Part shown: in pieces, positions 1 through 58,387 of the stretch | How the letters are laid out: every line of letters begins with the position of its first letter | Numbering within the stretch: position 1 is the stretch's first letter | Position numbers and translations under genes: made by a program | NCBI GenBank assembly: GCA_046563655.1 | Contig: CM102286.1 | Location: 3,224,001-3,288,000 of the forward strand | Source: Yuukianura sp. NJ FZ-2021 | Lineage: Eukaryota | Reading direction: 5' to 3' | DNA: 64,000 nt | Notes under the pieces: generated by a model | Database searches by the model: none | What the model saw: the letters and a program-made list of their open reading frames with translations, nothing else | What the model was told of the DNA's origin: nothing

Positions 1-1712
1 TTACGAAACAAACTCCAGATTTTTTATATACACGAAGATCCACACGACAGAGGACTAGTCAATGACTACGCTCGAGATTCCGGCCCCAGTTCACTCGGAC
101 TGGCACACTCCGGACTTACCGAGAGAGATTCACACCCCTCCCTGCCCTGTGTCACCTGAACAGCTACTTGCAAGCCTCGATCCGTCTTCGCGCCCAATCT
201 ACTGCAATGCCGTATGTTCCAGTGTATATGAAAAAAACCGAAAGTCACGTTAAATGTCAAGTAAAGTCTCGTTAACTCTAATAGTAACACTTCTGCTGCG
301 ATATGAAAAAAACCGAAAGTCACGTTAAATGTCAAGTCAAGTCTCGTTAACTCTAATAATAACACTTCTGCTGCGCATTCAAGCAAGAGACACAGGGACT
401 AAGTTTTTGTACCACATCCCCGAACCAATGCGGATTGAGACTTTGAAACGATCTGTGCATGGACACATTCGCCAAGAAGTGATTCCGTAGGTTTCGGTTG
501 TGGGATTTAGTATGTGTTCCTAAGTGATGGTACAGAGAAGGTTTAGTCAAAAATTTAAAGTTCATTTTACAATTTTTTGAACCAAAATTACGAAACAAAC
601 TCCAGATTTTTTATATACACGAAGATCCACACGACAGAGGACTAGTCAATGACTACGCTCGAGATTCCGGCCCCAGTTCACTCGGACTGGCACACTCCGG
701 ACTTACCGAGAGAGATTCACACCCCTCCCTGCCCTGTGTCACCTGAACAGCTACTTGCAAGCCTCGATCCGTCTTCGCGCCCAATCTACTGCAATGCCGT
801 ATGTTCCAGTGTATATGAAAAAAACCGAAAGTCACGTTAAATGTCAAGTAAAGTCTCGTTAACTCTAATAGTAACACTTCTGCTGCGATATGAAAAAAAC
901 CGAAAGTCACGTTAAATGTCAAGTCAAGTCTCGTTAACTCTAATAATAACACTTCTGCTGCGCATTCAAGCAAGAGACACAGGGACTAAGTTTTTGTACC
1001 ACATCCCCGAACCAATGCGGATTGAGACTTTGAAACGATCTGTGCATGGACACATTCGCCAAGAAGTGATTCCGTAGGTTTCGGTTGTGGGATTTAGTAT
1101 GTGTTCCTAAGTGATGGTACAGAGAAGGTTTAGTCAAAAATTTAAAGTTCATTTTACAATTTTTTGAACCAAAATTACGAAACAAACTCCAGATTTTTTT
1201 ATATACACGAAGATCCACACGACAGAGGACTAGTCAATGACTACGCTCGAGATTCCGGCCCCAGTTCACTCGGACTGGCACACTCCGGACTTACCGAGAG
1301 AGATTCACACCCCTCCCTGCCCTGTGTCACCTGAACAGCTACTTGCAAGCCTCGATCCGTCTTCGCGCCCAATCTACTGCAATGCCGTATGTTCCAGTGT
1401 ATATGAAAAAAACCGAAAGTCACGTTAAATGTCAAGTAAAGTCTCGTTAACTCTAATAATAACACTTCTGCTGCGCATTCAAGCAAGAGACACAGGGACT
1501 AAGTTTTTTACCACATCCCCGAACCAATGCGGATTGAGACTTTGAAACGATCTGTGCATGGACACATTCGTCAAGAAGTGATTCCGTAGGTTTCGGTGGT
1601 GGGATTTAGTATGTGTTCCTAAGTGATGGTACAGAGAAGGTTTAGTCAAAAATTTAAACTTCATTTTCCTATTTTTTGAACCAAAATTACCAAACAAACT
1701 CCAGATTTTTTC
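1..1712. repeat. Tandem repeat, ~587-bp unit, about 3 copies (begins at or before the window edge)
   Basis: Units start at 1, 588 and 1175 and are nearly identical. Units 1 and 2 carry an internal 75-bp duplication (226-300/301-375); unit 3 has one copy. Confidence 0.97.
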
Positions 1713-34545: not shown

Positions 34546-35618
34546 ACTTCCTGAAAATTCTGCCAATCAAAGTTGAAATTGTTTGAGGCGGCTGCCTACT
34601 CAAACAAAATTCTAAAGCTGAATCCATTTGTAAAATGTAGGAAAACCTGAGATTCCAAAATAGCGTCGTAGCCAAAGCAACTACATATTAGTGTTAAAAA
34701 GTTCTTCTAAGCTGTAAGGAGACTATATGGGCTTTTCTTCCTTACAACTTTTGTTCGATGTACTAATAGTAATTTTCATCAAGTAACAAATAAATCCAGT
34801 TGTAACCCGGAGGGTTCGAAAGTTGCGAAAGGTGGAGCCGAAATCGCGAATGGCTGCTAATACCGGCCTAACATTGTAAGTTGCAATTTCTCATTGACGT
34901 CCACGGCAATACAGAGAGGCAGAACATGTGGATGCATAAAGTAGCTCTCGCTGCTTAATAACCGTAGTTTCTATTAACAAGAATAATGGTCATCATGGTG
35001 AGTATCTTGGAATCAACTGAAACAGTACGAACGGACATTTTCATGTAGAACGCAATATAAAAATTATTGGGTACAAAACATTAATCTCCTTCAAAAATTA
35101 ATAACGCGAAACTTTAATTAGCAGATTTAAACAAATGGAAAATCGTTTTCCCCACATTTCATAAGCATATTGGTGGGCGATATCTCTTTTTCATTTGATT
35201 TTTCCGAAGCAAGGTGCAATGCGAACGCTCAACAAAGGTGAATGCCAACTTTCCAAAGACAAGAGTGTAAGTAACGCTTCTGCACATTATTGGAACCGTT
35301 ACGTTACTCTTGGGAGGAGTAAATTGAGAAGAACCCATCAGAACGAGTTTCCAGAACTTGTACCTTGCTGCAATCGTAGATTTTTTCTGTAAAAAAAAAT
35401 CGATGAAATTCGCCACAGAAAACTTTCACTTCCGCTGGAAAAAGTTGAAGGTAGTCGGTACATAAATTCTTGCTCTTGGTTGAAACATATTTTGCGAGGT
35501 TGACATAATTTCAAATGAAAATTTTAGCTTTTCTTTTCTTCAATTGTTTCAACAATTCTTTGTAACTTTTCAGATAGCTACATTGCTAGAAATCCAATCT
35601 TGCTTTACTTAAAAGAAA

Positions 35619-36612
35619 ATGGCCACTCCTGTCCCGGTGAAGAGCCTAAACTTGGTGTTTCTTGGAGAAAAACAAGGTAAAAATTGCCGACGTTCATACT
35701 AACTTGAATTTCAGGACTTACAAAATTGTTTTTGTATTAGTTGGAAAAACAGCACTCATCAACCGGATTATGGAAGATGCTCCAATGGACACATCATTTA
35801 TGGTTTCAGTGGATAAAACATTGAAATTGATCACTGTTAAAGGGGGCGACAAAACACTGGACCTCCATTTAACTGATACTTCCGGAAAGGAACGAAGTGT
35901 TTCCACCATTGACTCTTACATTCATCACTCCACAATTTTTATTATAGTTTACGATGTCACTGGTGAGAGTATCTTCTTGTGTTTTTTGATACCACAAAAT
36001 CTGGAACCGTTTTGTTTAAAATTTTTTTATTTAAAAAAAAAGTCGTACAGTGAACATAAGTTTAATAAGTTTTTTTTTTCATAACAACTTTGTGATAGAT
36101 GCTAGCTCATTCCACGTCACTTCGAAATGGGTGGATGTTATTCGATCTGTGCATGGACAAGATGCCATCATCAGTTTAGTGGGAAACAAAATTGAGCAAA
36201 GTGACGCACGACAAGTGACAACTGAAGAAGGCCAGCAACTAGCTAATGAATTGCGCGCAATGTTTATCGAAACGAGCGCTGTCGCAGGGCCTAATGTGAC
36301 CGTCGTAAGTGTACCTACACACTTAATTGTTTTAATTGAACAAATATTTATTTAAAAAAAGATTATGTATTTTTTCTTTAGTTATTCCACCGACTGGTTA
36401 TGGCAATTCTGAAAAAGGACAGACAGCGGGAACTAATAAGGGAACTAATTGATGATGGTATGAACATGCTCGATTCAGATGAACAACAATTTCTAAACTT
36501 AAATGTAAACTTAAACTTGTTAACATAAATGTTAACCGCTTAATATTGCAACTTAACTTGTTTTATAGAGGAGGAAGAAGAGGAAGAAGACGCATCATGT
36601 TCTATTTCTTGA
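35619..36612 (+). CDS. Divergent Rab6-like small GTPase, copy 4
   Basis: Same exon structure; DTSGKE, NKIE; ends CSIS*. Confidence 0.88.
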
Positions 36613-37467
36613 ACTTCCTGAAAATACTGTCAATCGAAGTTGAAATTGTTGAAGGCGGCTGCCTACACAAACAAAATTCTAGCGAAGCTGATAGCATCCG
36701 TAAACTGTAGGAAAACCTGAGATTCCAAAATAGCGTCGTAACAAAAGTAATTAGAAATTAGTGTTAAAAAGTTCTTATAAGCAGTAACGACGGTATATGG
36801 GCGTCTCTTCCTTAAAACCTTTGTTCTGTGTACTAATAGTAATTTTCATTTAACAAGTAACACTAAATAAATCCAGTTGTAACTCGGAGGGTACGAATGT
36901 TGCGAAGGTTGGCGCTGAAATGAGGAACGGCTCCTCATAACGGCCCAACATTTTAAGTTGTAAGGGTCACTTTGGGTCCCATGAAATAGACAAAAGTTGC
37001 TTATCTCGATGAGATGAACAATTTTTGTAGAGATCAAGTTCTGTTACCGGAGAAGAACAGGTTGACCATGACTTTTGTTGCGGAAAGAGTTGGCCTACCG
37101 GGATGATATTTAATATTAAACATCTCTCTCTGGGAGGCTAGGTAGTGTAGATCCCGGAAATGTTGAGTCGTTAGCGAGAATTGATCCATGAGAACGAGTT
37201 TCCACAACTGGTACGCTCTGTATACTCGCAGTTCTTTCTGTAAAAAAAAATCGATGAGATACGCCGCAGACAAACTTCACTTTCGCTGGAGAAAGTTGAA
37301 GGTAGTTGGTCTATAATTTCCTGGTTTGGTGGAAACATTTTTTTCGAGTTGACATAATTTCAAATGAAAGTTTTAACTTTTCATTCCTTCAATTCTTTCA
37401 ACAACTCTTTTTAACTTTTCGATAGCTAAATTGCTAGAAAGTCAATCTTGCTTCACTTAAAAACAAA

Positions 37468-38390
37468 ATGGCCACTCCTGTCCGGGTGAAGAGCCTAAAC
37501 TTGGTGTTTCTTGGAGAAAAACAAGGTAAAAATTGCCGAAGTGCATACTACCTTAGAATATCACGATTTACAAAATTGTTTTTGTATTAGTTGGAAAAAC
37601 GGCGCTAATCAACCGGATTATGGAAGATGCTCCAATGGACACTTCATTTATGGTTTCAGTGGATAAAACATCGAAATTGATCACTGTTAAAGGTGGCGAC
37701 AAAACGCTGGACCTCCATTTAATTGACACTTCCGAAAAAGAACGAAGTGTAGCCACCATTGACTCCTTCATTCGTCACTCCACAATTTTTATTGTAGTTT
37801 ACGATGTCACTGGTGAGTATCTTTTGACACCACAAAATGTGAAATTTTAAGTTTAAAATTTCTTTACTTTAAAAAAAATTGGTAACCGTGAGCATAAGTT
37901 TTTATAAGTTTTTTACCAAAACAACTTTGTAATAGATGCTAACTCATTCCGTGCCACTTGGAATTGGGTGGATGTTATTCGATCCGTGCATGGAGACGTT
38001 GCCATCATCAGTTTAGTGGGAAACAAAATTGAGCAAAGTGAAGCACGGAAAGTGACAACTGAAGAGGGCCAGCAACTAGCTGATGAATTGCGCACATTGT
38101 TTATTGAAACGAGCGCTGTCGCAGGGCCCAATGTGACCGTCGTAAGTATACTTACACACGTAATTGTATCAATTGAACAAACATTTATTTAAAAAAAATA
38201 TTTTTTTTCTTTAGTTATTCCACCGACTGGTCATGGAAATTCTGAAAAAGGACAGACAACGGGAACTAATAAGGGAACTAATTGATGAGGGTATGATGGT
38301 AATCCTAACTGTTAACCGCTTAATTGCAATTTAACTTGGTTTATAGAGGACTTAGAGGATGAAGACGACGCATCATGTGTTATTTGCTGA
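37468..38390 (+). CDS. Divergent Rab6-like small GTPase, copy 5 (G3 glycine lost)
   Basis: Same exon structure; DTSEKE, NKIE; ends CVIC*. Confidence 0.85.
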
Positions 38391-39563
38391 ACTAACCTAA
38401 AAATTCTCTCAATCGAAGATGAAATTGTTTAAGGCGGCTGGCGGCTGCCTACAAAAAAAAAATTCTAGCGAAGCTGATAGCATCCGTAAACTGTAGGAAA
38501 ACCTGAGATTCCAAAATAGTGTCGTAACAATAGTAATAAGAAATTCGTGCAAAAGATAGGTAAGAAAAAGTTCAGTGTACTAGTAGTGATTTTCATTTAA
38601 CAAATAACACTTAATAAATCCAGTTGTAACCCGAAGGGTACGGAATGCGAAGGGTGGCGCTGAAGTCGCGGACGGCTGTTCATACCGGCCTAACATTGTA
38701 AGGTGCAACTTCTAACCCCTAATAGGCCATAGTTACTGGAAAAAAAAAGAGTTGATCTTTGACCTGGAAGGGGGGTCAATTTGGCTTATATGAAATTCAC
38801 AAACCTCGATGAGATAAACAATTTTTGTAGAGATCTTGCATTGTCTGTTTGGGATGAACCGATTGATCTTGAGCTTTGATGCAGAAGGACTTGACCCACC
38901 GGTATGATATTTAATATTGAACATTTTTGGGTCGCTAGTAGATGGAGATCCCGGATATGTTGAGCCGTTTACGACATAATTGACGTCCACTCCAAAGCAG
39001 ACATACAGACTGACAGAAAATGTCGTCACATAAAGTAGCTGTCGTTATTTAATAACCGTAATTTCTGTTAAAAATGATGGTCATCATGGTGAGTATCTTG
39101 GAATAAATTGAAACAGTACGAACGTATACTTTTATGTAGGACGCGGTATAAAAGTTTGATGAGCAATGGCTTGACCCATCGGTATGATATTTAATATTAA
39201 ACATCTCTGGGTCGCTAAAACATTAATCTCCTTCAAAAATCTTCAAAAATTAAAGTGAGAAGAACCAATCACAACGAGTTTCCACAACTGGTACCTTAGT
39301 CTATACTCTCGTAGTTTTTTCTGTAAAAAAATCGATGAGATACGACACAGAGAAATCAACATTTCACTTCCGCTGGAGAAAGTTGAAGGTAGTTGGAGCA
39401 TAATTTCTTGTGCTTTGCTTGAAACATACTTTGCGACGTTGGCATAATTTCAAATGAAAGTTTTAACTTTTCTTTCCTTCAATTCTTTCAACAATTCTTT
39501 TTACGTTTTCGATAGCTGCATTGCTAGAAAGTCAATCTTCGCCTAAAAGTCGCCTAAAACAAA

Positions 39564-40513
39564 ATGGCCAGTCCTATTCCGACGAGGAGCCTAAACTTGG
39601 TGTTTCTTGGAGAAAAACATGGTAAAAATTGCTGTAGTAATGTAGTATACATACTTAGAACGTCATGATTTACCAAGATGTTTCTGTATTATTAGTTGGA
39701 AAAACAGCACTGATCAACCGGATTATGCAAGATGCTCCAATGGACCCTAAATTTAGGGTTTCAGTGGATAAAACATTGAGATTGATCACTGTGCAAGGGG
39801 TAGACAAATCGCTGGAGCTCCACTTAATTGACACTTCCGGAAGAGAACTAAGTAGAGACACCATTGACTCCTACATTCATCACTCTTCAATTTTTATTGT
39901 AGTTTACGATGTCACTAGTGAGTATATTTTTTATCTTTTCATACCACTAAATCTGGTATCTTTTTGTTCAAATTTCTTTAGTACTTAAAAAAACCGTGTA
40001 CATGAGTTTATTATTTTTTTAAAAAACAACTTTGTGATAGATGCTCACTCTTTTCGTGTTACATCGAAATGGGTGGATATTATTCGAGCTGAGCATGGGA
40101 GGAGATGCCATCATCAGTTTAGTGGGAAACAAAATTGAGCAAAGTGACGCACGAGAAGTGACAACTGAAGAGGGCCAGCAACGAGCTGATGAACTTAACA
40201 CATTGTTTATTGAAACGAGCGCAGTCGCAGGGCCCAATGTGACCCTCGTAAGTGTAATTACACACTTAATAATTGTTTCAATTAAACAAACATTTATTTA
40301 AAAAAAAAGATATTTTTTGTTTAGTTATTCCACCGACTGGTTATGGCAATTCTGAAAAAGGAGAGACAACGGGAACTAATAGAGCAGCTAATTGATGATG
40401 GTATGAACATGCTTGTTTCAGATGAGCAACAATATGTGAAAGATTAACCAGTTAAGTGCAATTTAACTTGTTTTCCAGAGGAGGAATACGACGCACCATG
40501 TTTTATTTGCTGA
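39564..40513 (+). pseudogene. Divergent Rab6-like small GTPase, copy 6, with a +1 frameshift in exon 3
   Basis: gagcatgggaggagatgcc versus gagcatggagaagatgcc in copy 1 gives one extra G near 40097-40099. Otherwise intact, so it could be a sequencing error. Confidence 0.7.
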
Positions 40514-41413
40514 TCTTCCTGAAAATTCTGTCAATCGAAGTTGAAATTGTGTAAGGTGTCTGCCTACCCCTACACAAATATAATTGTAGGAAAGATTCCA
40601 AAATAATAAAATAGTAATAAAAGTAATTACAAATTAGTTTTAAAGAGTTCTTCTGAGCGGTAATGAGACTACATGGGCGTCTCTTCCTTAAGACCTTTGT
40701 TCTGTGTGCTTAAATAGTAATTTTCATTTAACAAGTAGCAGTAAATAAATCCATAACCCGGATTGTACGAAAGTTGCGAAGGTTGGCGCTGAAATCGCGT
40801 ACGGCTGCTCATGGCGGCCCAACATTGTATAAGTTGTAAGGGCGTCACTTTGGTTCACATGAAATAGACAAAAGTCGCTCATCTCGATGAGATGAACATT
40901 TTTGTGGAGATTATTTTTTGTTACCGTTGATGAACAGGTTAACCTTGACTTTTGATACGGAAAGAGTTGACCCACCGGGATAACTGATGACCCACCCCTA
41001 CATTTCATAAGCATTTTGGTGAGGGATATCTCTTTTTTAGTAAACGTTTTTAGAAACAAGATGCAAGATGAACGTGTCATGCCCACTTTCCAAAGACAAA
41101 AGGGTAAATACCGCTTCTGCACATTCGGGGAACCTTTATGGTAGTCTTGGGAGGAGTAAAGTGAAAAGAACCCATCGAAAACAAGTTTCCATAACTGGTA
41201 CACTCGTATTTTTTTTTCTGCAAAAAAAATCGATGAGATACGCCGCAGTAAAACTTCACTTTCGCTGGAGAAAGTTGAACCTAGTTGGTTCATAATTTCC
41301 TGTTTTGGTTGAAACATTTTTTTGGACGTTGACATAATTTCAAATAAAAGTTTGAACTTTTCATTATAGAGCTATATTGCTAGAAAGTCAATCTTGTTTT
41401 ACTTAAAAACAAA

Positions 41414-42323
41414 ATGGCCACTTCTGTTCCGACGAAGAGCCTAAACTTGGTGTTTCTTGGAGAAAAACAAGGTAAAAATTGAAGTAGTACATACTTAGAA
41501 CATCATGATTTACCAAGCTGTTTTTGTATTAGTCGGAAAAACAGCACTGATCAACCGGATTATGCAAGATGCTCCAAAGGACACTAAATTTAAGGTTGCA
41601 GTGGATAAAACAAAGAAATTGATCACTGTTAAAGGGGGTGATAAATCGCTGGAGCTCCATTTAGTTGACACTTCCGGAAGAGAGCGATGTAGAGCCACCA
41701 TTGACTCTTTCATTCATCACTCTACAATTTTTATTGTAGTTTACGACGTTACTGGTGAGTATATTTTTGCTCCTTTGTTTATTTTTAAAAAATTCATAAC
41801 TATGAACATAAGTTTATATAAAGTTCTTCTCTTTTTTTTCAAAACAACTTTGTGATAGATGCTAACTCGTTTCGTGTTACTTCGAAATGGGTGGATGTTA
41901 TTCGATCTGAGCATGGAGAAGATTCCATCATCAGTTTAGTGGGAAACAAAATTGAGCGAAGTGATGAACGACAAGTGACAACGCAAGAGGGCCAGCATCG
42001 AGCTGATGAACTGCGGACATTGTTTATTGAAACGAGCGCAGTCGCAGGGCCTAACGTGACTGTCGTAAGTGTGCTTACACACTTAATTGTTTCAATTAAA
42101 CAAGCATTTATTTAAAAAAAAAAATTTTTTTTTAGTTATTCCACCGACTGGTCATGGCAATTTTGAAAAAGGACAGACGGGAGGCCTTGGAAGATGGTAT
42201 GAGCCATAACTCTTGTGATAAATGAGCAATAATTTGGAAAATGTTTTAGTTTAACCAATTAATCGAAATCTAACTTGTTTTTTTTTAGACGAGGAAGACG
42301 AGAAATCATGTTTCATTTGCTGA
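41414..42323 (+). CDS. Divergent Rab6-like small GTPase, copy 7
   Basis: Same exon structure; DTSGRE, NKIE; ends CFIC*. Confidence 0.88.
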
Positions 42324-44383
42324 ATTTCCTGAAAATTTTATCAAACGGAGTTCAAATTGTTTGAGGCGGCTGCCTACACAAACATAATTCAAGCGAAACT
42401 GAATCCATCCGTAAACTGTAGGGAAAGCTGAGATTCAAAAATAGTGTAGTAACAAAACTATAATTAGAAATTAGTTTAAAAAGTTGTTCTAGACTCTAAT
42501 GAGATTGTATGAGCGTCTCTTCATTCAAATCTTTGTTGGATGTAGTAGTAGTTTTTACTTAAAAAGTAAAACTAAATAACCTTAATACTTTATCATTCAG
42601 TTGACACTTTCAATGTCTATTTCCGGAATTATTTTGTGAAAAAACTCGGCGCAGAGGAAGTAACTTTGCCCAAACAAAAGTTAATTATACGTGTGGGAGT
42701 TATTCCTCTACATTTCCATTAATTATCGGATTTTCTGGCAAAAGTTTGCTAAAACATTAATTAAAAAGTAAGGTTTCCCAATGTTACAAAAAAGTCACAA
42801 AGTTTCAGCAGTTGAAAATCACCAAAAAACCACAGTCATAGTACTGCAGGTCTAAAGTTTAACTAAATGAAATTAAGTTGCCTTTGATGCTAATAATCTA
42901 AAGTACCGCGGGTGTTGAAATGAAACAGAACAGAAACCACCATTTATATTAATACAGAATTACTACGAAATCTTTTGATCATTAATAGAAAATACAGTGT
43001 GGGAGTTTTAGAAATAAAAGATGAATTTTAGATAATTTTTTGTCTTTGTTTCACTCTGTACCGAAATCTAAGTTTGAATCAAATGAATCATCCCACGTTT
43101 CAGGTTCTGTTCGCTTAAAACATTTTTCATAAATTTGAAAACTTTAGTAGCAGAACCTTTCATTGCGCAATTTTTAGCCATATTTGATAGAAGGATACGG
43201 TACAACTTAAAACTTCTGGATGGATTCTATTTGTACACAAAACAAAACAATATGCTTTTGGTGTTCAAATATTTCATATGTCTTCAAATTTGTAACAGCC
43301 TGGTAGCTCGGAAAACTTTGCGTTAAACCAGCGAACGAAGGCCTGTTGCTCAATGCGAGGTTCTACTTTAATGCTATTTTCTAAATCAAGGATTCTCATC
43401 ATCTATTTAAGCACACTTTTGCAACATCGACGCAATATGTGCTTGTTTTATTTTGTAGAAAACATTACTACCGGTAGTGGTTTCAATAAAACCTTCCGGG
43501 GGTAGGATGAGAATTTTGTAACAACTTTTTTTTTACCATTGCACAATTTTGTTTCTGAGAAAACCTCTGTGAATTTTATACTGAATGTTAATTGAAAAAA
43601 AAATACTGTCGAGAGTAAAATCCGCAAGCTTAATAAGTATCTTTTATACGCAATTTTCTTTGTACTTGTCAAAAATTTCAACCACTTTGCTTATTAATTC
43701 AATTTCGTTTCGAATCATTAGAAAGTTTTCGTTTTGCGATACAAAAGTGATGTGTGGTTAGAAATTTTTTCTAAGAATTTTTGTTTGTCGTTTCGTTTTC
43801 AACTAACCTTGAAAAACAAGTGACAGGACTTGTAAAAACAGAAGTTTTGAACTGCCCGAAACCCGGTCTCGAGTTCCCAAAAGACCAGCTTAAAAAATAT
43901 CTTAAGGGAATGGATTTTATATTTCATAAACTTAGCATCTAACATCAAAACGCCATTAGAAGGTTCGTCAACTCTTCTGGAACCGCAACTTCATATTGTC
44001 TTTTTCTCTTTTTTGAAAAGTATCTCTCTAACTCCATAATTTTTTCTGTCATTTCAGAAAATGTTGCTCGAAGTCAGCCGTGTAGAACGACCAAAGGCCT
44101 TCTTCTTTCAAGCTGAATTTTATTTTCCATGCTTGCATGCTGCAAAACGAAGCAGAATTTTTCCCAAGGCTTAGTTTTTTCTTTTAACACCGCCCTCTCA
44201 TTCGATGTTTGCTATTGTCAGTCTTTTAGTAAGTTACACACATCACTTTTTGCAAAATAGGCCAGTAAACATTACTCTGTTGTAAGAACTTACCGTTAGA
44301 CAATTGCTAATTGTCACTTCAACCTGTCTAAATCATAATGTGACCACAGTCAATAAGTTTCTTGTGTGAGTATTGTGTTCAAA

Positions 44384-46473
44384 ATGGACAATTCATTAAA
44401 AAGTGTTGATTTTATCAAAAATTTAAACAGTAATGGCGTTCTTCTAATTTGTGGCTTCGTGGCTCTAGTTTCGTTCAATCGAAAATCATTTTTGTCAAAA
44501 ACAGTTTTTACCGTGCTAAAATGGATCCGAATTTTTGTAGAAGATTTATGCCTCACATACCTCTCTTCTTTATGGATCCTCATAATCTGTGGATTTCCAC
44601 AAAGTGCTTGCATGATCTACCGATGGTTCGTTTGGATCTATGTTAAACTTAAATTCGGATCCCAAGCTACGACTATTGACAATTTGGATGTTGTTGGCAT
44701 TGTGGAAGACGATGACGCTCCAGTGGCAATTCTTTCACTGAAAGTTCTGGACGGTGTTTGTGACCTGGATGACCTCAGAGCCAGAATTCTAGCTACCGTT
44801 ACAAAGAAAAATGATAGGGGTCAATTGAAATTTCCCAAATTTCAGCAAACACTAAAAAGTTTTAGTGGCTATGCCTGTTGGATCCCGTCACAACTTGATA
44901 TCAATTATCACGTGAGAATTCTGGACAGCCTGGATGCGGAAGAACTAAACAGCGATTTTTCTTCCGTTAGTGAAAGTCGTGTGCTGGAATTAATTAGTCC
45001 TTTGGCAAAGTGCCGATTTGAACCACGGCGGTCACCGTGGGAAGTTCTCGTGGTACCAAAGTTTCACTATGACTGTGAATCTCCCACGGAGATCATTGAC
45101 CGCTTTGCAATTATCATTCGCGTTCATCATGCCATTGGTGATGGTTACTCTTTTCTGAAACTAATCATACGAGACACAAGTTTAGAAGGAGATGACAATG
45201 TCAACTGTCCGACTCCCGCCACTCCGAAAACGTCAATCATGCCTCTGTGGAAAGGAATTCTGGTTTTTCTGTATTTGACCTTGAGGGGAACCAGAGCTCT
45301 TCTAGCAGAAACTTTTGTCGTAGATGACAATCCGCTATTCAGGAGAAAACCCAGCGGCAAAACGGTTTTAGCCTGGTCACCTCCGATGTCACTGAATTTT
45401 CTTAGAGAACTCAAGAATTCTTCAGGCGTTGGACTAACAACAGTATTTTTAGCTGCTTTGACCTCAAGTGTCAGAAAATATATTTATGAGGTCAGTAAAT
45501 TCTCAAGGTCAAGGTACAATTAAGTTGAAAACGCAGAGGTCAAATGTGAAATGCTTTTTTTTGTAGGAATTCAATGTGGAGCCAAGTTCCCTCTCTGCTG
45601 TCATTCCATTTCCGGCTCCGAATCACCCGAATAACAAAATCACAAACAAATTCAGTTTTGTGCGATTTCCACTTCCGTGTTCAGAAGCTTCTGGAGATCC
45701 ATTGAAGTATTTAAAGGCAATGGAAATTCAAAGTAGGAAGTTAGCGACTGCGCCGGATGGGCCAATGAACTTGCTCCTTTTGCATATGGTTGGAGTATTT
45801 CCTACGAGACTCATCAGAGGATTCCTCAGAAACAAACAATCTACGTTGGTCATTTCAAATTTACCGGGACCTTCTCAAAGAATTTCAATTTGGGGAAAAC
45901 CGTTGGCCGAAACCATGTTTTGGTTATCACCACTTGGAGTTTCGGGTGAATTTCAAAAAACGTTAAACTTTTCTCAAGAATTTCCTCATTTGAAATTTTC
46001 GGAATTATTTGTTTTTAGGAATTAGTGCCGCTTTCCTGAGCTACAACTCTCAGTTTCGTCTTGGTCTTACAGTTGACACAGGAATTATAACGGATGGACG
46101 CGTAGGAGCAACGCGCCTAATTCAGGGATTTCTGGATTCAATTTTGGCCACAGCCCACAGTCTTGGTGTTTCTCCCGAACGTGCTTTTCCACAAGTGACT
46201 ATGATGGATAAATTGACCTCAGAGGGGAAAGTTCAACCTACGCCAGCTAAGTTTCCAGGAAATGAAAACCCTAAAAGTGAAACTGAAAGTGAAACTTGCG
46301 GCCACTTTTCACTTGATTCGTCGGAAACCGTCAGCGGTGGAAGAAATGACGATGGCCACGCCGATAATGAATTAACCTCTAATGAAATTAGACCGGAAAC
46401 ACAAAACTGTCACACACGATTCCCCAAACGATCAAACACAATGACGAAGTCTCCACCTACACTTACCAATTAG
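44384..46473 (+). CDS. Wax ester synthase/diacylglycerol acyltransferase (WS/DGAT) family protein, 3 exons
   Basis: Catalytic RVHHAIGDG (HHxxxDG), SPWEVL, LVISNLPGP, FLSYNSQFRLG and a hydrophobic N-terminus. Exons 44384-45490, 45567-45945, 46019-46473. Confidence 0.88.
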
Positions 46474-46816
46474 CTGGTCCAATCGCTTCAAAATCGCCTA
46501 ATTGAGCGGTTTTTGTAAATTTTTGGAAATTTGTGGTTTAATACTAAAATTAGCGCTAAATTGGCGTTATTTTAAGAAAATATTAGTATTTTTTTTTGAA
46601 TTCATACTTAGTCTTATACTTTTAGAATGAATGACAAATTTAAGTATTCATAAGCCTTGTTTGAATCGAATAAAATTAGGTAAATTTTAATTTCAAGAAA
46701 GGAACAGAAGAATAGAAGTGAATAAATATTTTTACGATTTTGAAATTTGTAAAATAAATTGAAATTTCTATTTACATTTAGTAGTAGTACCTTGATTGAT
46801 TTTTTTTCCCGAAATT

Positions 46817-47250
46817 TTAGTTATAGTTGACAACGTCGTCGTCTCTGAACCATTCGGATGATCCTGCATTTGGGTTTGTGTCCCAGCGATCAACAGCGCT
46901 TCTTTTGTCATTCCACGTTTTGGAAAAAAACCAAGGGCTCCATTTGAATTCAGTTGACGGTAGCTGAAAATGGGATTTTTTGAAAATTGAAGAAATATTT
47001 TGTTTGAACATTTTGAAGATGAACTTACTCTTTTATAACCACTCCCTCCATATGTTGTTGGTTGACTGATGAACTTTGACACAGGATAGCGTCCGAAATC
47101 CGTTGAGAGCCATTCTGGACTCCATTTGTAGATTCGATTAGAATCGTCGCGGTATGCATCAACGCCGTGATGGGTTACCCATGTTGCCAATCCAAAGAGC
47201 CCAAAAATTAGAACAATACTGCACCAGGACGACAATTTAAACTCAGCCAT
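46817..47250 (-). CDS. Secreted propeptide/neuropeptide-like precursor, 122 aa, 2 exons
   Basis: Exons 47029-47250 and 46817-46963 with a 65-nt phase-0 GTAAGT...TTTCAG intron; signal peptide; two KR sites; repeated (Y/F)KWSP(E)W motif. Confidence 0.75.
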
Positions 47251-48434
47251 TATTGTTAAATTTGAGTCAAAGCTTTCCAAAAATTTTTGAGCTGGGGTGA
47301 TTTTCGGACAATACAGCACTGGAACCTCTATAAAAACGAAACACGTTTAAAAATTTTACAACTGTTTTATGAAAAGTACTTTCACGAAAATCTAGTACCT
47401 GTTGCTTCGAACGTGTGAAACACCACTGCGAGTGAAAGTCAAAGTGAGAATGGAGAAAGTTACGGCTCTCCATGCCTTTTTATGAGACAACGGCAAAAAA
47501 AAATACAGAGCCATGTACATTGTACAAGTTACAATTCTTTACGTGCGAGACAAGTACCAAGAAAACTAACAAGGTTTGTTACTTCAAATGTAATTACGAT
47601 CAACTCCATGCTCATTTTACAGCAATTTGGGTTATTGCTAACAAGCGAACGATTAATTGGTACATCAAAGAGACAATGACCCAGTTTTTGTAATTGTAGT
47701 GAATTAATGTTACCTACAAGATTCCATATCCACAACCACTGACTGCCTCCGAATTTCGGTGTGAATGTGAAGCCAATCACGTTTGACTTGTGGCGCCCTA
47801 CTTTTATTCGATTCACTCTCACTTCGTGTTTACTTTCTAGCATCTTCGGAGTAAATTAACATTGCAATGTCCAAAACAGTGTAACTGGACGGTAATTGAC
47901 ATCAAACACCACTAAGCCTAAACCTACTTTTTAACCGAAACACACTCTCGTCGGAAACCAAATATGTCGCCTAACCTTGGCCCTCTTCTGACTAAATATA
48001 TAAATCGAAAATACTTGTATGTTTACCGTATACGAACAATCAACGACGAAAAGTCATTTATGTGCGCTATTTATCATGTGATACGACGTTTCTGTAACGT
48101 AGTCTCAGTCGAGGTGTAAATTTACGATTTAATTAAAGGCTCTGCAACAGGAAATACTAAAATATCTTATGTAATACATTAATTGAGTAATATAAGTCAA
48201 GTATAATACTTAAAAAGAAGTACAAAATGTTAAGTTACAAACTAAAAACTGTATTTCTAGGCGGCCAGCGAGAAATTGCATAGCTGTCCTACTATTCTAC
48301 TTACGAAGAATCCGGGCTAAATGTTACTGAAAACTTTGACTCCCATCGTCCATAATCACTTAATAACCTACATACTCATATAATAATAATTTTGAACACG
48401 TACGAACGTATTTCAGTTATGCTTTGAACACTCT

Positions 48435-49036
48435 TCAGTGTTCCTGGCTCAGAGGACGACGGTTGCTTGTGGGTTCAAGTCGACATTTCTTTTGACGTCG
48501 TCTCTTCACAACACTTGTTCTCATGTCGAGCGGTTTCTCCAAGTAATCGCTGGCTAAACTCTGAAAATATGTTGATATAGTCATTTACGCACCAGTAAAT
48601 GTTATTATCAACAGTTGAGTGTAGCAAACGCTCGTATTTGAGATACCTTTTTGAATTTGATGTAGAGAGTGCGCCGAGGAACACAAAATAGCTGAGCAGC
48701 GAGAGAACAGACCATACCGTTACGAACAGCTTCGATTGCTTTTACCATGTCGTAATCAGTGTATCGTTTGTAACCCCTCTTCTTCCTGTTCCCGTCTGTC
48801 CCGCCCTCACTTTGGTTTTCATGGTTCCGGTAGCCCTCCTCCGAACCATTACCATTGTTATCTGTATTTTGAATCGGAATGACGTCCACCTTGACAGTTT
48901 GCCTGTACTCAAGTACCGGTATGACGTAGGTAGTTGCGCAAACGATGTTGTTGCCACTTCGAAACGACGCAACGCTTATTGGGATGGACAGCAGTTCTGC
49001 TAGGTTCGGCATCGGCATTCCTGAACCGAGCGACAT
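48435..49036 (-). CDS. Small pipsqueak-type HTH protein, about 171 aa, 2 coding exons
   Basis: YTDYDMVKAIEAVRNGMVCSLAAQLFCVPRRTLY is a psq HTH. A phase-0 intron at 48561-48646 adds a tail containing PLDMR and KRRRQKK. Confidence 0.75.
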
Positions 49037-49610
49037 GGCAACTTTACGCAGGATAAATCTCGTCACACCCACCCTAGAAGACAGATTTTGTGTTCAGTCA
49101 GGAATTAATCAGCAAATCAAGAAAACGCAGAATTATATTTAACTCACCGTCAATTAACTTGCAATCAATTACTGTTCAATTACTGTTAATTCACTCACTG
49201 TGACGGATCCGGATAGCTCAATACCTAACGAACCCCTTTTTTCTTTGTTTAATTTCGGAGTAGGTCTTGCAAATGGAAACAAACAGTATACAGTAAAAGA
49301 CATAGAGCAAAACACGAGTCTATTCGGTTTGAATTTTGCACAGATTTTTGCAAATCTGCACTTGAGCTAACCCAGAGTACCCGAGATTACACAGGAAAAG
49401 TTAAACCAATAACTTTAACCCTAATGTTTATCCAAATATACCTGAATTTGTCGGAGGCAAATTACTTAACCAAACACCTAATATGGTAGTCACATTACCG
49501 AATAAAAGATTGACGGCATAATACTTTAGAGGATTATTATCATGGGAGTGAACTCTTTTGTAATTCCAGCATAAACTACGACATTACTACGTTTACTTTT
49601 TTGTCGCAAA

Positions 49611-50875
49611 TTACATTGACACTAGGGCATAAGTAGTTGCGTTCAATAATACGTTAATACCAGCCAGCTTTGTTTGTTGTCTGTAGTAAAACAGGCTGTT
49701 TTTGCAACGTAATGGCCGAAACGCTTGGATTTTGAGTGTAGTAAGCAGAATGGGCGGATGTGTTGTACGCAATTGCAGAAGAAGGTGTTTGAGAGTAACG
49801 GAATTTTCGTATACGGCAGCCATACCAGAGCTGATGACAAGTTCAGTTACGACGCATAATACAAATATTACAGGCGATATCAACACATTGGCTAAGTTTA
49901 AGCCACTTGACAGCCGAATCGTAATGTAGCAGGAAATGATCAGGGCGACCTGACTTTGAGTCCGAGCAATTTCACAGCCGGGTAGACCTTGGTAAATATT
50001 TGACAGTATAGTCAGAACATTCAGTGTTTCAAACAATGTTTTGACATCTCCTTCCTGAAGCCATTGCCTGTACGAAACGAATCAACATCAAATCTTAGAT
50101 ACAATTTTGTCTAATATGAATTCTAGCTACTTACTTGCATTTTTCTAACCAAAAGAGGGCAACCGAGACATGGACGTAAGCAAAGGTTATCACCAAGCAG
50201 AACAAAGTAATGGCACGCATTAGACCGTACGCTTCAAAAATTGTAAGTGCGATGAATATTGGCCACGACTTCCACTCTAGCGGAATTACTGAATAAATAA
50301 AATTCGGATTTGTTTCAAGAGTGGGAAACACCAAAAAAGCCAGGAATGTGACAGCATATATCCCGATTTGACAATGTTTCAAAATTCTGTCCATGAAATG
50401 AGGTTCACGGTATTCTTTGTTCACTTTTTCTACGCCTATAAGAAGATTACCGTAAATCAATAAGACAGCTAACGAACATAATTATTAAGTACGTACCGTA
50501 TGTCTTGAGGAAGTTTCGACCTGTTTGGAGCCAATCACAGTAGCTTTCGGTGTAGTGAATGAGAGTCAAATGAACAAAGCTAAGGCTGATTTCTTTAATT
50601 GTAAAGTATCCGTGAAACGTTAGCTGAATAAGGTAACACTCACGTTTCTCGTGTTCAAAATCGTAGGGAAATTTCGGAATCATTAGCCGCGACAACACAA
50701 AAACTAAATAAAACGACGATACAATGAAATGCAACCAAACAATGCAACGTTTCAAATAAGACGTAGTAAGCCTAAGCTTTTTCGTTTTTGGGTTCCAGTC
50801 TGCCGGCAGTATGAAGGTCACCACTGACAATCGTACTAGTTTGTCCAACATGTCAAATTCAGTTTTAGTCAACAT
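49611..50875 (-). CDS. Gustatory-receptor-like 7TM chemoreceptor 1 (3 exons, about 380 aa)
   Basis: Multiple hydrophobic helices; C-terminal TM7-like LLNATTYALV; exon pattern shared with its neighbours. Confidence 0.72.
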
Positions 50876-51417
50876 TTCGACAGTTATGTTTCCGAGCAGA
50901 CGCTTTCACTGACAATGAATAAACCCGAAATAAAAGAGGTAAGCCATAGTTTCATAGTTCTGAAATTATTGCAAAAGAAAATTGCACGTTTTGCAACTGA
51001 AGTAGTAGTTTTCTTAGTTTAATGTCATTATGTAGACGAAAATGTTGAAGGAAGCAATAAGCACATTACGACAACCCCAAGATAAGAACGAAAGTGAAGC
51101 AATATTCAAAGCTCTCTTTAATAGAACTTATGCTGTGCACCAATCAATCAATAACGTGGCCGCTTTGCCTCCGTCTTTTCAGGAAAAACTGAAGTATATA
51201 ATTAATTACAAACAGAGTATTCCACAAATGATTTCAAAACTCGCATTTGATATTTGGAAGTTACACAATTTTTATTTAACCATTAATCGCGACTTGTTCT
51301 TATAATTAATATTAATTATTCTAACTCTAGTGCAAACATTGGGCAACGTTGTTTCATCATCACGCTACAAAATTTTTTAGAATACTACATGCAGTATATA
51401 TGCATTTTAAGTATAAT

Positions 51418-52781
51418 CTACAACGTGACTAGCACATACGTTACCGTGTTCATGAGTAATCCAATTGTTGAAATTTTAATCCTTTGTTTATAATAAAACA
51501 TTGCATTGCTCCATCTAAGCGGACGAAATGCCGATATATTTGTTTCAATAATTACCTTTTTTGTTGTATTGGCCTTTCGAAGTTCGAATTTTAATTTTTG
51601 TGAGTTTTCATATATGTTGGCCATTGACGCATTGAGATAAATATCCAACGACGAAAGAAAAATTACAACGCCCGGAGAAAATAAAAGCAGAATGAAATTG
51701 ATAGACTCCGACAGGCGAATAGTTACGTAAGAGCTAGTAATAATGGCAACTTGACATACAAATTTCTGAACGTCATACATGGAAAAGTCGTCCCAAGTAT
51801 TTACAAGTACACTCAAAATTTTCATCAAGTCAAGGACGTCTCCTATTCTTCCAAAACGTAGCCATTCCCTAAAAATTAAAGTAGGTATTATACTTTACAT
51901 AAATTCATCATATTAAATGACAATTTCTTTTGGAAATTTAACATTTTTGTAAGGAATACTTACTTTGACTTCTCGGTCCAAGAGTGTATGATACGCAAAT
52001 GCAAGTATGCAAAGCAAGACAGCATGCTAAACCCTATGATAACTCGAAGCATAAGCCAGAGTTCAAGTACAGCAAAAACCGTAAAAATCCACCAAGTTTT
52101 GAATTCCATCGGCAAAATCGAGTAGACAAAATTAGGATTTTCTCGCATCGCCGGGAAAATAAATAAAGCGAGCAAAGCCAAGCAGTAGAAAAACTTCTCA
52201 ACCTCTTTGACAACGTTGTCACGCCGTTCCGAAATTTCACATTTCAGGTTCAGTTTCGTCAATCCTACAAACAAATAAGCGACAGTGAAAACGTACATAA
52301 TAAAAGGATTTACACATTTCAAAGCTATTAACCGCTACCAAGAAATATAAGTAAAAACACTATTTTTCTTTTTTGAGTTATGTAACTATCATTTACCAAA
52401 GTTTTCATTAAAGCGTCGTACAACATTAAACCAGTTGCAATAACTGTCGTTGTACTTGACAAAAAAGTATTGATGCACAACGAGTACAGAGTCTTTGAGT
52501 AGATAGTAAAGATGGAAGGTAAACGGAACAGCAAAGGCTTGGTTATTGCAATGTTTCCGGTCGTAGTAAGGAGCTACGTGTGGAACAAAGAGTCTTGCTA
52601 AAACAAATCCAAAAGAAACATAGATTATAAACGTATTCACATAAGCAAAGTACAATTTGAATTTTGATGTGGTTGGTTTCAATTCCTTGGCTTTTGGATC
52701 CCAATCCGATGGAATAGTTCCAGAATAGCAAGCAATCTTAACGAACTTTTCGATTGCATCCAACTCCACCTTTGTAACCAT
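51418..52781 (-). CDS. Gustatory-receptor-like 7TM chemoreceptor 2
   Basis: MVTKVELD...LLMNTVTYVLVTL*; 3 exons. Confidence 0.75.
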
Positions 52782-53326
52782 TATTGTCAATGTTGTGTAG
52801 CTCTTGTGCGCCAAATTGAAACTGAAACGCTAAACTGCATCCAGCAGAGGTAAAGCGGAAACCGAAATTTTGAAACCCATTGTTAATAAGTGTACATTTC
52901 TTCGGATATATGTAATATTTGGACATGTAATTTGAAAACATGTTATTAGAAGACAGTATTTAAAAATCTTAATTTTGATTTTCATATAATCGAAAATCAG
53001 ATAAAGAAAAATCAACATCAACTTTTAATTAAAAGAAGTTTTTGAGCATCTAGCTTTAGTTAATTTTGTTATTCGAGCGCGCACTTATTCAATTACTATT
53101 TCAAACATAGCTATCAGATTTTAACTATTTGCTAATGCTTTGAAAGTTTCGATGATTATTATGACACAATACTTTGCGAAGTTTTTGTTAATAAAATGTA
53201 TAGGGTGACGGTCTTTCCTTACTATACTTTTGCCTACATATATGCTCTTCCTAAATTTTGAGTTTTATGGATTTGTTTCTACAACACAGTACTTACAGTA
53301 TTATATATTTATAAGGCAGTCGTCGT

Positions 53327-53404
53327 TTACCAAACTTTTCATTCAACTGTTGTTGTACAAGATCATCCAAAATGTCCAGCATCCAGCTCGATTTTAGTCT
53401 CCAT
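53327..53404 (-). pseudogene. Collapsed remnant of a GR-like exon 1
   Basis: ATG-start METKIELDA lies directly beside sequence resembling the exon-1 end (LNEKFG followed by gtaa). Confidence 0.55.
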
Positions 53405-53987
53405 ATTTCATGGTAGATTCAGATTAGACTCGTGAAGCGAATAACAACAAAATATGATGGTTCAGCTCCACAATACGGGAGTTTATTGAAACAAAATTAC
53501 GACTAGACGTAGGTACATACTATATGTATCTGGTAAAACATTTTAAGATAAAAAAAGTGCATCACTGAGGCATTGCTAGAATCCTTACAGAGATTAAACA
53601 ACATATATGGTTAAAAAGTTAAGCGCTGGAGTTATTTAAATTAAGTATAAATTGTATGTAACCTTTGCCGCTTATTTATTATGTCACTGTTCATTATTTA
53701 GGTACATGCTATGTAAATCCAGCTAGAAAAATTATTTACCTAAACTTTTAATCGACAATTAATAGTCCATTATAAACTATGCTAGCGTTGCAAAACCAAA
53801 ATAATATGCTGAGAAAAACCATTTTGTGTAGGAAAAAAACAACTTTTGTATTCAGAAAACAGGAAACTATACACTAGAGTATGGTAAGGTTATCACAATT
53901 TGTGATATCATGCAAAACTTTGCACTTTTGAACCATTTTTACAACGTATGTTTAATGTAAGTATGTAAGTACAGCTCACATAGTAAT

Positions 53988-55345
53988 TTACAAAGTGACA
54001 AGCACATATGTTATGGTATTCATGAGTAAACCAATGGTTGAAATCTTAGTACTCTGTTTATAGTAGAACAAAGAGTTGCTCCATTTAAGCGGTCGGAAGG
54101 CTGAAATATTTGTTTCAAAGATTAACTTTTTTGTTGTGTTGGCCTTTCGGAGTTCGAATTTTAATTTTTGTGAGTTTTCATATATGTTGGCCATTGACGA
54201 ATTTAGATATACATCCAACGACGAAACAAAAATTACAATACCCGGAGAAAGCAAAAGCAGAATGAAATTGACAGAATCGGACAGGCGAATAGTTACATAC
54301 GAGGCGGCAATAGCGCATACTTGAGATATAAGTTTCTGAACGTCGTACATGGAGAAATCATCCCAAGTATTTACAAGTATTCTCAACATTTTCATCAATT
54401 CAAGTACTTCTCCAATTCTTCCAAAGCACAGCCATTCTCTAAATATTAAAGTAAGTATTATACTTTGTATTATATAAATCTATTACATTCAACAATTACT
54501 CATTTTTTGAAGATTTAATATTTTAGCTTGCAATGTAAAATTTACTTTGCCTTCTCGGTCCAAAAGTATATAGTACACAAGTGTAAGTATGCAAAGGAAG
54601 ATAGCACGCTAAACCCAATGATGGCTCGAACCATAAGCCAGAGTTCAAGTACAGCAAAAACCGTAAAAATCCACCAAGTTTTGAATTCCATCGGCAAAAT
54701 GGAGTAGACAAAATTGGGATTCTCTCGCATAACCGGAAAGATAAATAGAGCCAACGAAGCCAAGCAGTAGAAAGAGTTCTGAACCTTTTTGACAATTTTG
54801 TCACGCCGTTCCGAAATTTCACATTTCAGGTTCAGTTTTGCCAATCCTACAAACAATAAACCATATAGTGAAAATGTATATAAGGATTAATTAATTTCAG
54901 AACAAGTATCAAGAAGTAAGAAACACTATTTTTAAAGTTGAATTATGTAACTACATTTACCAAAGTTTTCATTAAAGCGTCGTACAACATTAAACCAATT
55001 GCAATAACTGTCGTTGTACTTGACAAAAAAGTATTGATGCAAAACTAGCAAACTGTTTTTGATTAGATAGTAAAGATGGAAAGTAAACGGAACAGCAAAG
55101 GCTTCTTTATTGCAATATTTCCAGTCGTAGTAAGGAGCTACGTTTGGAACCAAGAGTCGTGCTAAAATAAATCCAAAATAAACATAAATTATAAAGGAAT
55201 TCACATAAGCAAAGTACAACTTGAATTTTGATTTGGTTGGTTTCAATTCCTTGGTTTTTGGATCCCAATCCGATGGAATAGTTCCAGAATAGCAAGCAAT
55301 TTTAACAAAGTGTTCGATTGAATCCAATTCTACTTTTGTAACCAT
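53988..55345 (-). CDS. Gustatory-receptor-like 7TM chemoreceptor 3
   Basis: Close paralogue of receptor 2; ends LLMNTITYVLVTL*. Confidence 0.75.
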
Positions 55346-56121
55346 GTTGTCAAAGTTGGGTCGTACTGGAGAGCCAAATTGAAACTGTAACGCTAAATAT
55401 TATGAGTATCTTCAATTAAGTAAGGAAGGAGAAATTGAAACTTTGAATTTCAAATGATAATTCTTCACCTAATCTGTTGACTTTCATATGGAAAAGGTTT
55501 TTTTAATTATATGAAACTGAGAGATATCATCTAAAAACCTTAGTTTAATTCAAAGCTAACCGAATATCAGATACTGAAGAATCAACAACTTATAATTCAT
55601 GGAATAATGTAAACCTTTCATTAATGCTGATTTTGTTATTTGCACTGCGCCTATGTTATTACTAGCTCTAGCATTCCAGACCGTAATTACTTGATTCGAA
55701 ATTTTTTGATAATTACGCAAGAATCAGTTCAAAATTCTTGGTAATGTGTACAACATACACTTAAGAATATATAGCAAGATGAGCAATTATGCTGGAGTAA
55801 GTAACCACACTTAATGGCTTCGAATATTACGAAAACCTTTTACTTTTTTACTTGTATACTGTTTCTGGTACTGGTATTCACACAATTTTTTTCGATTTGC
55901 TCATTTTACGCGGAATTTATAGTTTGCAGAACGTAGCAGAAACTGGTTTTGAGTAACAAATTATTTAAATGGTGGTTATTTTATTTTTTAATACTACTTC
56001 AGTAACAATTAGTTATCGTTATTACGATAGAATTAATTCTACGGACGTGTTACTCTTGATTTATTCATTGACTCAAGCATTAGTCGACCATGGGCTTAGG
56101 TGTAACACTCACAACAAATAT

Positions 56122-57488
56122 TCAGAAAGTGACTAGTACATATGTTATGACATTCAAGAACAATCCAATTGTTGATAATTTAGTGCTGCGTTGGTAGTAA
56201 AACACTGAGTTGCTCCATCTAAGCGGCCTGAACGCTGCAATATTTGCCTCAACAAATAAATTTTTTGTTATATTCGCCTTCTTCAACTCAAATTTTAAGT
56301 TTTGCGATTTTTCATACACGTTGGCCATCGACGAAGTGAGGAATAAGTCCAGTGATGCAAGGAAACTTGAAAGGCCAGGAGAATATAAAAGGATGATGAT
56401 ATTGATAGACGGAGAAAGGCGTATAGTTACGTACGCAGAAGCAGTAACTCCAAGTTGACATACAAATTTCTGATTCTCGAACATGGAGAACTCATCCCAA
56501 ACATTCACTAGTACTCGCAACGCTTGCATCAATTCAAGGACTTCTCTTATTCTTCCAGATTCCACCCATTGCCTGAAAATTCAATTAGTTCTTATTGATA
56601 CATTGTATATTGTATTATAATGTATATTGTATTTCATCTAAAAACTTATATTAAGTAGTTGTTGAGATGCATTTTTTTGTAATTTTGATAAATTCTGAAA
56701 TTAAACTTTACTTTGACTTCTCGGTCCAAAAGTGTAGTGTCCGAAGATGCAAGTACGCCAAGGAGAATAAGAGGGCATACCCAATTATGGTTCGTATCAT
56801 ATGCCAGAGTTCAAATACAACGCACATCATAAAAATCCACGACGTTTTGAATTCGTCTGGGAAAACGGAGTAGAAGAAATTCGGATTGTTGCGCATTACC
56901 GGAAAAACGAACAAGGACAACGAACCTACGATGTAGAGAAAATTCACAAACTGGCTGACAACCTTGTCACGCCGAGGAGTTTTAGAATACAAATTCAGTT
57001 GTGACATTCCTGCAATCAAAAATATTAATAGTAAAAGCATTTCTCTAAAATCTCTAAAAGAAATATTATAGATGAATTTAATAATACGTGTATGTGTATA
57101 GTTTACCAAAGTTTTCATTGAATTGTCGTACAGCATTAAACCAATGGCAGTACCTGTGGTTGTACTTGACGAAAAAATATTGATGCGACAATATTAGGAG
57201 GTCTCTCAGTGAATAGTAAAGGTGAAAAGAAAAGGTAACGGCAAATTCTTGTTCCTTGTCGGATTTCCAGTCGTAAGGAGTGACATGTGGAACAAAGAGT
57301 CGTGCTAAAAGAAACCCAGAGTATACGCAAATTATGAAGAAATTTATAAAACCCAGATAAAACTTGATTTTTGATCTAGTTGGTTTCAATTCTTTGGTTT
57401 TTGAATCCCAATCCGATGGAATAGTTCCTGAATTGCAAGCAATTTTAACAAAGTGTTCGATTGTATCCAACTCAACCTTTGTAACCAT
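56122..57488 (-). CDS. Gustatory-receptor-like 7TM chemoreceptor 4
   Basis: Paralogue; ends LFLNVITYVLVTF*. Confidence 0.75.
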
Positions 57489-58387
57489 AATGTAAAAGTT
57501 GTGTCTTACTGAAGCGCCAAATTAAAACTGTACTACCAGAAGGTTGCACAAGGCGCCAGTACTAAAGTTTATAATCTTGGAATAAAATGTTACCCTTGAG
57601 TTCTAACTACTTTTTTTTCAAAATAGAAAATCACAAGATTGCTTGTCAAAAACATTTTTAATTTGCAGTTAATAGTGGCAGATAAGCAAAAATCAGGGAA
57701 AAAATTGACACTAACTTATTCTCAGATCTTTGTAACTGACTTTATGCCTTGAAACACATATCAGACATAGTAATTATTTTCCCTCTAGTTAGTTTTAGTC
57801 TATTGTTGATTGACGACATGTGCCAATAATTATGCAAAAACTGTTCAACCTTTCTCATTTTCCAAGAGTTTAGTTTTGATTGCTTTCACTATTACGCAAA
57901 ACTGGTTTTCTGATTTTACGAAACATATATTTAAGAGGCAGTTTAGAAAACAGATAAATCATTTTTATTCTCGAAAAGTAAGTTTAATCGATTAATTAGT
58001 ATTTAGTGTTTGTTACGCTTTACCTTGGATCTCAAGCATTACGACTAATTACTTCTTAGAATATTTTGAATTGAACTTAGAAAACAGTTTTAACATTGAT
58101 TTTCAACATTTCATTTCTTGGTGGAACAAATCCTTTTAAATTACAATTACGAGGAAAACTGTGTATAATTTTTTAGAGAAAAGTCTTAATACATATTATG
58201 TTAACGTACTTCATGGATACTGCTTAATCTAATAATATTATTGGACATAATAACTAAGAAATTAGACAAAAGATTAGGGTGGAAGTATCACAGTTATGGA
58301 GTTGAATTGAAGCCGGGATAAACCACAACGAGATTCCGACAATCAATGGTAAAAGCTGAACGCAAATTTCACTTTAAATTCATTTGT

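Follow-up and report, generated by a model that had tools for sequence, protein, structure and literature searches.

Small secreted proteins carrying dibasic sites are not a distinctive group: layouts of the type 'signal peptide plus Lys-Arg' (KR) are frequent in ordinary secreted proteins, and for small orphan secreted proteins the prior favours roles in glands, the cuticle, immunity or reproduction over roles as neuropeptides. Orphan small secreted proteins of arthropods are, moreover, a descriptive class and not a family, and membership in this class is silent on function. More is specified for peptide precursors. PMC6313938 gives the convertase motif as (K/R)Xn(K/R), with n = 0, 2, 4 or 6, and the amidation motif as G(K/R)(K/R) or (K/R)XnG(K/R). 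In Chlamydomonas, according to the same paper, amidated peptides could formally arise from 360 of 771 signal-peptide proteins, indicating that the precursor layout is unspecific.

Here we describe a candidate gene on the minus strand of a 64-kb window (the whole stretch of springtail DNA that was analysed, 64,000 nucleotides long), which an earlier note had read as a candidate precursor of new Trp-rich neuropeptides hidden by an intron. With arthropod multi-peptide prohormones, such as the collembolan families surveyed by Derst et al. 2016 (PMC4770511), the candidate shares a signal-like start, a small Cys-free product, a pair of KR sites and, in separate KR-bounded fragments, two motif copies that resemble each other loosely. 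Unlike these prohormones, it contains neither GKR nor GRR, its GR site is non-consensus, its motif copies number just two and are weak, and neither Pfam nor phmmer relates it to a family. Its resemblance to orphan small secreted arthropod proteins encompasses its short length, single short intron, signal-like start and lack of a detectable homologue, along with a biased, probably disordered composition and non-adapted codon usage. We assign a probability of about one half to the reading that this is a lineage-restricted (orphan) small secreted-protein gene of the springtail, with two coding exons and a spliced pre-protein of 122 aa. That a real gene of roughly this two-exon structure exists, whatever its product, we deem fairly probable; yet nothing past the general layout marks it as a neuropeptide precursor.

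The gene model is compact. Coding exon 1 (47029..47250, minus strand) comprises 74 codons, the first of them the ATG at 47250 (sequence context AATAATGG), and its translation runs from M to ...GYKR, the two KR codons abutting the donor. It would be followed by a putative phase-0 intron of 65 nt (46964..47028, minus strand; GTAAGT...TTTTCAG, GC 0.25) and by coding exon 2 (46817..46963, minus strand), which contains 48 codons and a TAA stop codon (46817-46819). When exon 1 and exon 2 were joined in silico, a 122-aa protein was obtained. The peptide strings in the earlier note proved to be the exact minus-strand translation from 47250 to 46817, and the coordinates of its signal-like segment, GR and KR sites and motifs were confirmed by script. 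While the open reading frames and the splice signals can be read directly from the DNA, transcription and splicing of the locus are what we infer from them. Past the stop codon, an ATTAAA (46686..46691, minus strand, 126 nt 3' of the stop) might act as a poly(A) signal; AATAAA is absent from the minus strand between 46450 and 46816. Ahead of the start codon, a 71-nt 5'-UTR intron is conceivable (47328..47398, minus strand; GTACTA...TTTTTATAG), and upstream of it lies a TATA-like ATAAAAAG (47483, minus strand) with a CCATTC 30 nt downstream on the same strand; both upstream assignments are speculative.

The composition of the DNA is in keeping with this model. GC content is 0.44 in exon 1, 0.25 in the intron and again 0.44 in exon 2, and it amounts to 0.22 across the 200 nt 3' of the spliced-frame stop, the range in the window's confident (training) exons being 0.33-0.46. 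A strict pairing of GTAAGT with YYYYCAG at a distance of 40-120 nt occurs seven times in the 64-kb window, the candidate intron being one of these pairs. In four of the seven, frames of 34 codons or more are open on both sides, and those flanking the candidate intron are the longest (106 and 48 codons). Both the contrast in composition between exons and intron and the consensus splice signals are gene-like. The frame of exon 1 extends for 192 codons from stop to stop, in a window of 38% GC, and the ATG-ORF starting at 47250 spans 160 codons when left unspliced. In exon 2, all TGG triplets (5/5) fall in the spliced frame.

These observations bear directly on the possibility that there is no gene here, and that a chance open frame with splice-like signals happens to lie between the WS/DGAT and psq-HTH genes on either side. 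We regard this as somewhat unlikely, given that several independent signals coincide at the locus: the long ORF (160 codons from its ATG, 192 between stops), an intron of strict consensus placed exactly at the dip to 0.25 GC between two blocks of 0.44, the drop to 0.22 past the spliced-frame stop, a type of hydrophobic N-terminus that is rare in the window (4/81 ORFs, see below), the confinement of TGG to one frame, and two motif copies that differ synonymously. Codon usage, by contrast, speaks for a chance frame. Scored against the window's genes, exon 1 had a codon log-odds of 0.5 and exon 2 one of 1.5, compared with a mean of 7.0 (SD 3.2, 5th percentile 1.9) in 48-codon coding windows, and a synonymous-only codon score came to 0.8, compared with 6.4 +/- 3.8 in coding windows and 1.7 +/- 3.8 in out-of-frame windows. 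Relative to coding windows, none of the three scores exceeds the 5th-7th percentile. The codon usage of the candidate gene is therefore not coding-like and is no better than that of non-coding frames. Over exon 1, the two other sense frames score strongly negative, which the candidate frame does not. The searches for true homologues and for a paralogue within the window, which yielded neither, likewise fit a chance frame, as do the two frames open over exon 2, which would be expected if neither were constrained, and the ease with which AT-rich DNA encodes hydrophobic stretches.

The second open frame also raises the question of whether a real gene might make a different product. Without splicing, translation could continue for 86 codons beyond the donor, to 46768, the longest such extension among 26 donor-like sites located after long ORFs, and over the exon 2 region this read-through frame has a codon log-odds of 4.9 vs 1.5 for the spliced frame. 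The product could accordingly be an intron-retained protein of 160 aa, unchanged over its first 74 residues but with another C-terminal half, which is poor in Trp and ends at 46768, or else an uncleaved, type-II membrane-anchored protein, a variant in keeping with a hydrophobic stretch (L6-V25) whose 20 residues are long for a signal-peptide core. We judge such alternative products, taken jointly, to be improbable. When synonymous codons were resampled while holding the protein of the spliced frame (frame A), the +1 frame was open in 31% of cases, and a shuffled intron stays open in 29%, so that the double openness is mildly unusual at most. Furthermore, the intron has a GC content of just 0.25 and perfect consensus ends, the break in composition occurs at the spliced-frame stop and not at 46768, and the alternative frame lacks the motif of exon 1 (alignment score 20 vs 34). 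These features favour the spliced 122-aa form over the read-through form.

Hydropathy and single-sequence AlphaFold2 both delineate a signal-peptide-like N-terminus (residues 1-32; 47155..47250, minus strand). After a short, charged start come a hydrophobic core of ~17-20 residues and then THHGVDA, with small residues at positions -3/-1. On the Kyte-Doolittle scale, the 19-aa mean reaches up to 1.74 and the 15-aa maximum is 2.21. Across the six frames of the 64-kb window, 81 ATG-ORFs encode 70 aa or more, and in 4 of these, the candidate included, the N-terminal 15-aa hydropathy is at least 1.9; one of the other three begins the WS/DGAT gene and another is located within an exon of the multi-transmembrane (multi-TM) array described below. 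The AlphaFold2 model of exon 1 predicts a helix with block pLDDT values of 70/93/82 over residues 1-30; residues 41-74 have a mean block pLDDT of 39-51 and the whole exon a mean of 63, the model being informative solely for the N-terminal helix. Of the signal peptide ending in VDA that had been proposed, the hydrophobic start is clear and V-D-A obeys the -3/-1 rule, but the length of the core also suits an anchor, and the segment could alternatively be a signal anchor.

The predicted mature part of 90 residues is devoid of Cys, as had been claimed, and contains 7 Trp, 6 Tyr, 6 Phe, 12 Ser, 9 Asp and 13 basic residues. Given that Trp accounts for 0.9% of the window's coding residues, the probability of at least seven Trp in 90 residues is 2e-5, and at least five Trp occur in only 17 of 15,542 stop-free 48-aa windows (six frames), which are confined to three places. 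Part of this Trp content belongs to related motifs, whose positions were checked by script: YKWSPEW (47110..47130, minus strand) and FKWSPW (46931..46948, minus strand). Over five aligned codons these two copies differ by one Tyr/Phe change and by two synonymous changes at third positions (AGT/AGC and CCA/CCT). A weaker third motif, SSEWF (46847..46861, minus strand, likewise script-checked), can be compared with SPEWL in exon 1, and the RDDD that follows it with the YRDD that opens the mature part. The local alignment score (34) was matched by 308 of 5000 composition-preserving shuffles, and shuffling yielded p = 0.037 for a shared 4-mer and p = 0.027 for shared 3-mers. The recurrence of related motifs thus stands insofar as KWSP is common to two copies, but its significance is marginal (p 0.03-0.06).

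Three basic sites had been put forward for processing. KR site 1 occupies the last two codons of exon 1 (47029..47034, minus strand) and forms a consensus dibasic convertase motif; KR site 2 lies at 46901..46906 (minus strand). Both are present and might be cleaved, but dibasic residues are no more numerous than expected by chance: at least two dibasic pairs of any kind appeared in 55% of shuffles (p = 0.55), and at least two KR pairs with p = 0.067. The proposed amidation site, a GR after Phe (47089..47094, minus strand), is preceded by D at P4, S at P6 and W at P8. FGR is the sole Gly-basic site of the precursor, GKR and GRR being absent throughout. With no K/R at P4, P6 or P8, it misfits the convertase and amidation motifs given in PMC6313938, and the proposal of a Phe-amide generated from GR is not borne out.

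We also considered the possibility that the gene encodes a novel precursor of neuropeptides or peptide hormones. Following removal of the signal peptide, convertases would cut at GR, KR and KR, and a carboxypeptidase and PAM would then yield a Phe-amide peptide together with two or three Trp-rich peptides, which would act on a receptor. This reading is compatible with the signal-like N-terminus and the Cys-free mature part, with the two KR sites that put the two KWSP(E)W copies on separate fragments, and with the marginally significant similarity of these copies. However, the dibasic pairs occur at chance level (at least two in 55% of shuffles; p = 0.067 for KR), the copies are just two, loosely similar and unequal in length, FGR is non-consensus by the motifs of PMC6313938 and is unaccompanied by GKR or GRR, and the layout itself is unspecific, considering the 360 of 771 algal secreted proteins in the same paper. 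In addition, no Pfam family was found, the four motif strings were absent from all 8.4 million full texts covered by a literature search, and passages on novel, unknown or Trp-containing peptides in the collembolan neuropeptide survey (PMC4770511) mention no comparable peptide. We consequently hold this reading to be very unlikely. Equally improbable, in our view, is its more specific form, in which a springtail-specific gene for peptide signalling, arising de novo or evolving very fast, would encode a precursor cleaved at both KR sites, and perhaps also at the atypical GR, into Trp-rich peptides that are built around KWSP(E)W and of which one is perhaps Phe-amidated; these would constitute a neuropeptide family without an equivalent among other arthropods. 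The prohormone interpretation of the earlier note therefore holds, on intrinsic evidence, for the layout (short intron, signal-like start, two KR sites and Trp motif), but nothing apart from this unspecific layout speaks for a neuropeptide function. Its assertion that the motif lies outside described families, by comparison, agrees with both the absence of Pfam families and the negative literature search.

Several known motifs bear a superficial likeness to that of the candidate. An aromatic residue followed by Ser-Pro-x-Trp resembles the core of AKH/RPCH-type peptides, and the paired Trp residues resemble the W...W peptides of the MIP/allatostatin-B type. Membership in either family was rejected, as Gln does not directly follow the signal peptide, Trp is not followed by Gly-Lys-Arg, the spacing of the Trp residues differs, and neither Pfam nor phmmer yielded a match. 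The WSPW of the candidate also has the W-x-x-W form of the thrombospondin type-1, or WSXW, Trp motifs. A thrombospondin type-1 repeat was rejected as well, since a mature part with 0 Cys cannot form the disulfide-bonded fold, and no Pfam match was obtained.

For homology searches, exons 1 and 2 were used as separate queries. Neither exon matched a Pfam family at E <= 10. Word-index protein searches provided no candidate for exon 1 and one candidate (of the 'longer' lengths) for exon 2, none of which scored, and a phmmer search with exon 1 against 1.84 billion protein representatives retrieved no true homologue. One phmmer match, P0003 (E = 6e-24), was rejected: it is an 826-aa tandem-repeat ORF, its score adds up over 10 matched stretches, which lie in near-identical repeat units and individually reach only ~26 bits by pairwise BLASTP, and its alignment crosses the boundary between signal and mature part. 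A metagenome match (L001) was also discarded, as it lies on a GC-rich, bacterial-looking contig and was seeded by a single octapeptide pattern. The best score in the ESM Atlas was 0.77, under the lead threshold, and a sequence search of the PDB gave no match below E = 0.24. Within the 64-kb window, tblastn with both exons matched the exons themselves alone, revealing no paralogue.

The springtail origin of the DNA was tested with a housekeeping gene in the same window. A DIS3/RRP44 exon (5415-7166, minus strand) shared 66% identity with Folsomia candida and 64% with Orchesella dallaii, its best named matches, and was 86% identical to a JGI metagenome protein encoded on a 9.9-kb contig (P0004); no match reached 100%. 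These matches place the organism among the springtails. The lack of a 100% match implies that the springtail's own annotation lies outside the protein collections searched, while the difference between 86% and 66%/64% implies that a closer springtail relative is present in the environmental data set. With the nearest annotated proteomes this distant (64-66% for DIS3), failure to find the orthologue of a small, fast-evolving protein is to be expected, and the absence of homologues thus says little for or against the gene.

The candidate gene is situated between two genes recognised by Pfam. On one side is an intron-containing gene for an acyltransferase of the WS/DGAT type (wax-ester synthase / diacylglycerol acyltransferase; ORF pieces at 44357-46473, plus strand; PF03007 and PF06974), a family best known from bacteria and plants; on the other is a psq-type HTH gene (48608-49093, minus strand). 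Rfam returned 0 matches over 45500-49500. Further features were noted elsewhere in the window. Within positions 1-1500, a DNA unit of ~587 bp is repeated in tandem (two to three copies or more), with identical 110-aa ORFs at 66..398 and 653..985 and tblastn echoes at 198/785/1373. On the plus strand, 19213-29153 contains three tandem paralogues of a two-exon gene, with first-exon ORFs of 506-532 aa and a second exon of 190-195 aa whose Cys/His patterns resemble C2H2 zinc fingers. The stretch 29715-42323 includes ORFs consistent with small GTPases. On the minus strand, 49611-57521 carries a gene with three exons and a multi-transmembrane look, present four times in tandem; none of the three ORFs in the first copy matched a Pfam family, and the array may represent a lineage-specific, chemoreceptor-like family.

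Returning to the reading that we favour, an orphan small secreted-protein gene, a plausible course of events can be outlined. A two-exon transcript would be spliced at the 65-nt intron, and the hydrophobic N-terminus of its product would mediate entry into the ER. The signal would probably be cleaved near the junction of VDA and Y, with cleavage between GLA and T, or retention as an uncleaved anchor, as possible variants. The polypeptide released, acidic, Cys-free and ~90 residues long, would have a high content of Ser, Asp and aromatic residues; it would probably be unstructured and would carry an imperfect internal duplication of the elements KWSP(E)W, S-x-E-W-[LF] and [YF]RDD. On its way out of the cell it could be cut at the two KR sites by furin or convertases of the PC type, leaving fragments of 40, 19 and 27 residues. 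Its extracellular role may be that of a signalling peptide, or it may serve in glands, in the cuticle or in defence. Of the elements of this outline, the hydrophobic N-terminus and the Trp codons in the spliced frame are present in the DNA as described; secretion, cleavage and any activity of the 122-aa product are inferred.

At present, the candidate gene is a prediction from sequence. If it is real, it would add another lineage-restricted small secreted protein to the Collembola, animals about whose biology little is known. Its codon usage, still non-adapted, and the two frames open over the same DNA would in that event make it a case for studying the origin of short secreted genes. Should the product turn out to be a signalling peptide, it would represent a hexapod neuropeptide family without relatives, which would be uncommon, because most arthropod neuropeptide families are ancient.
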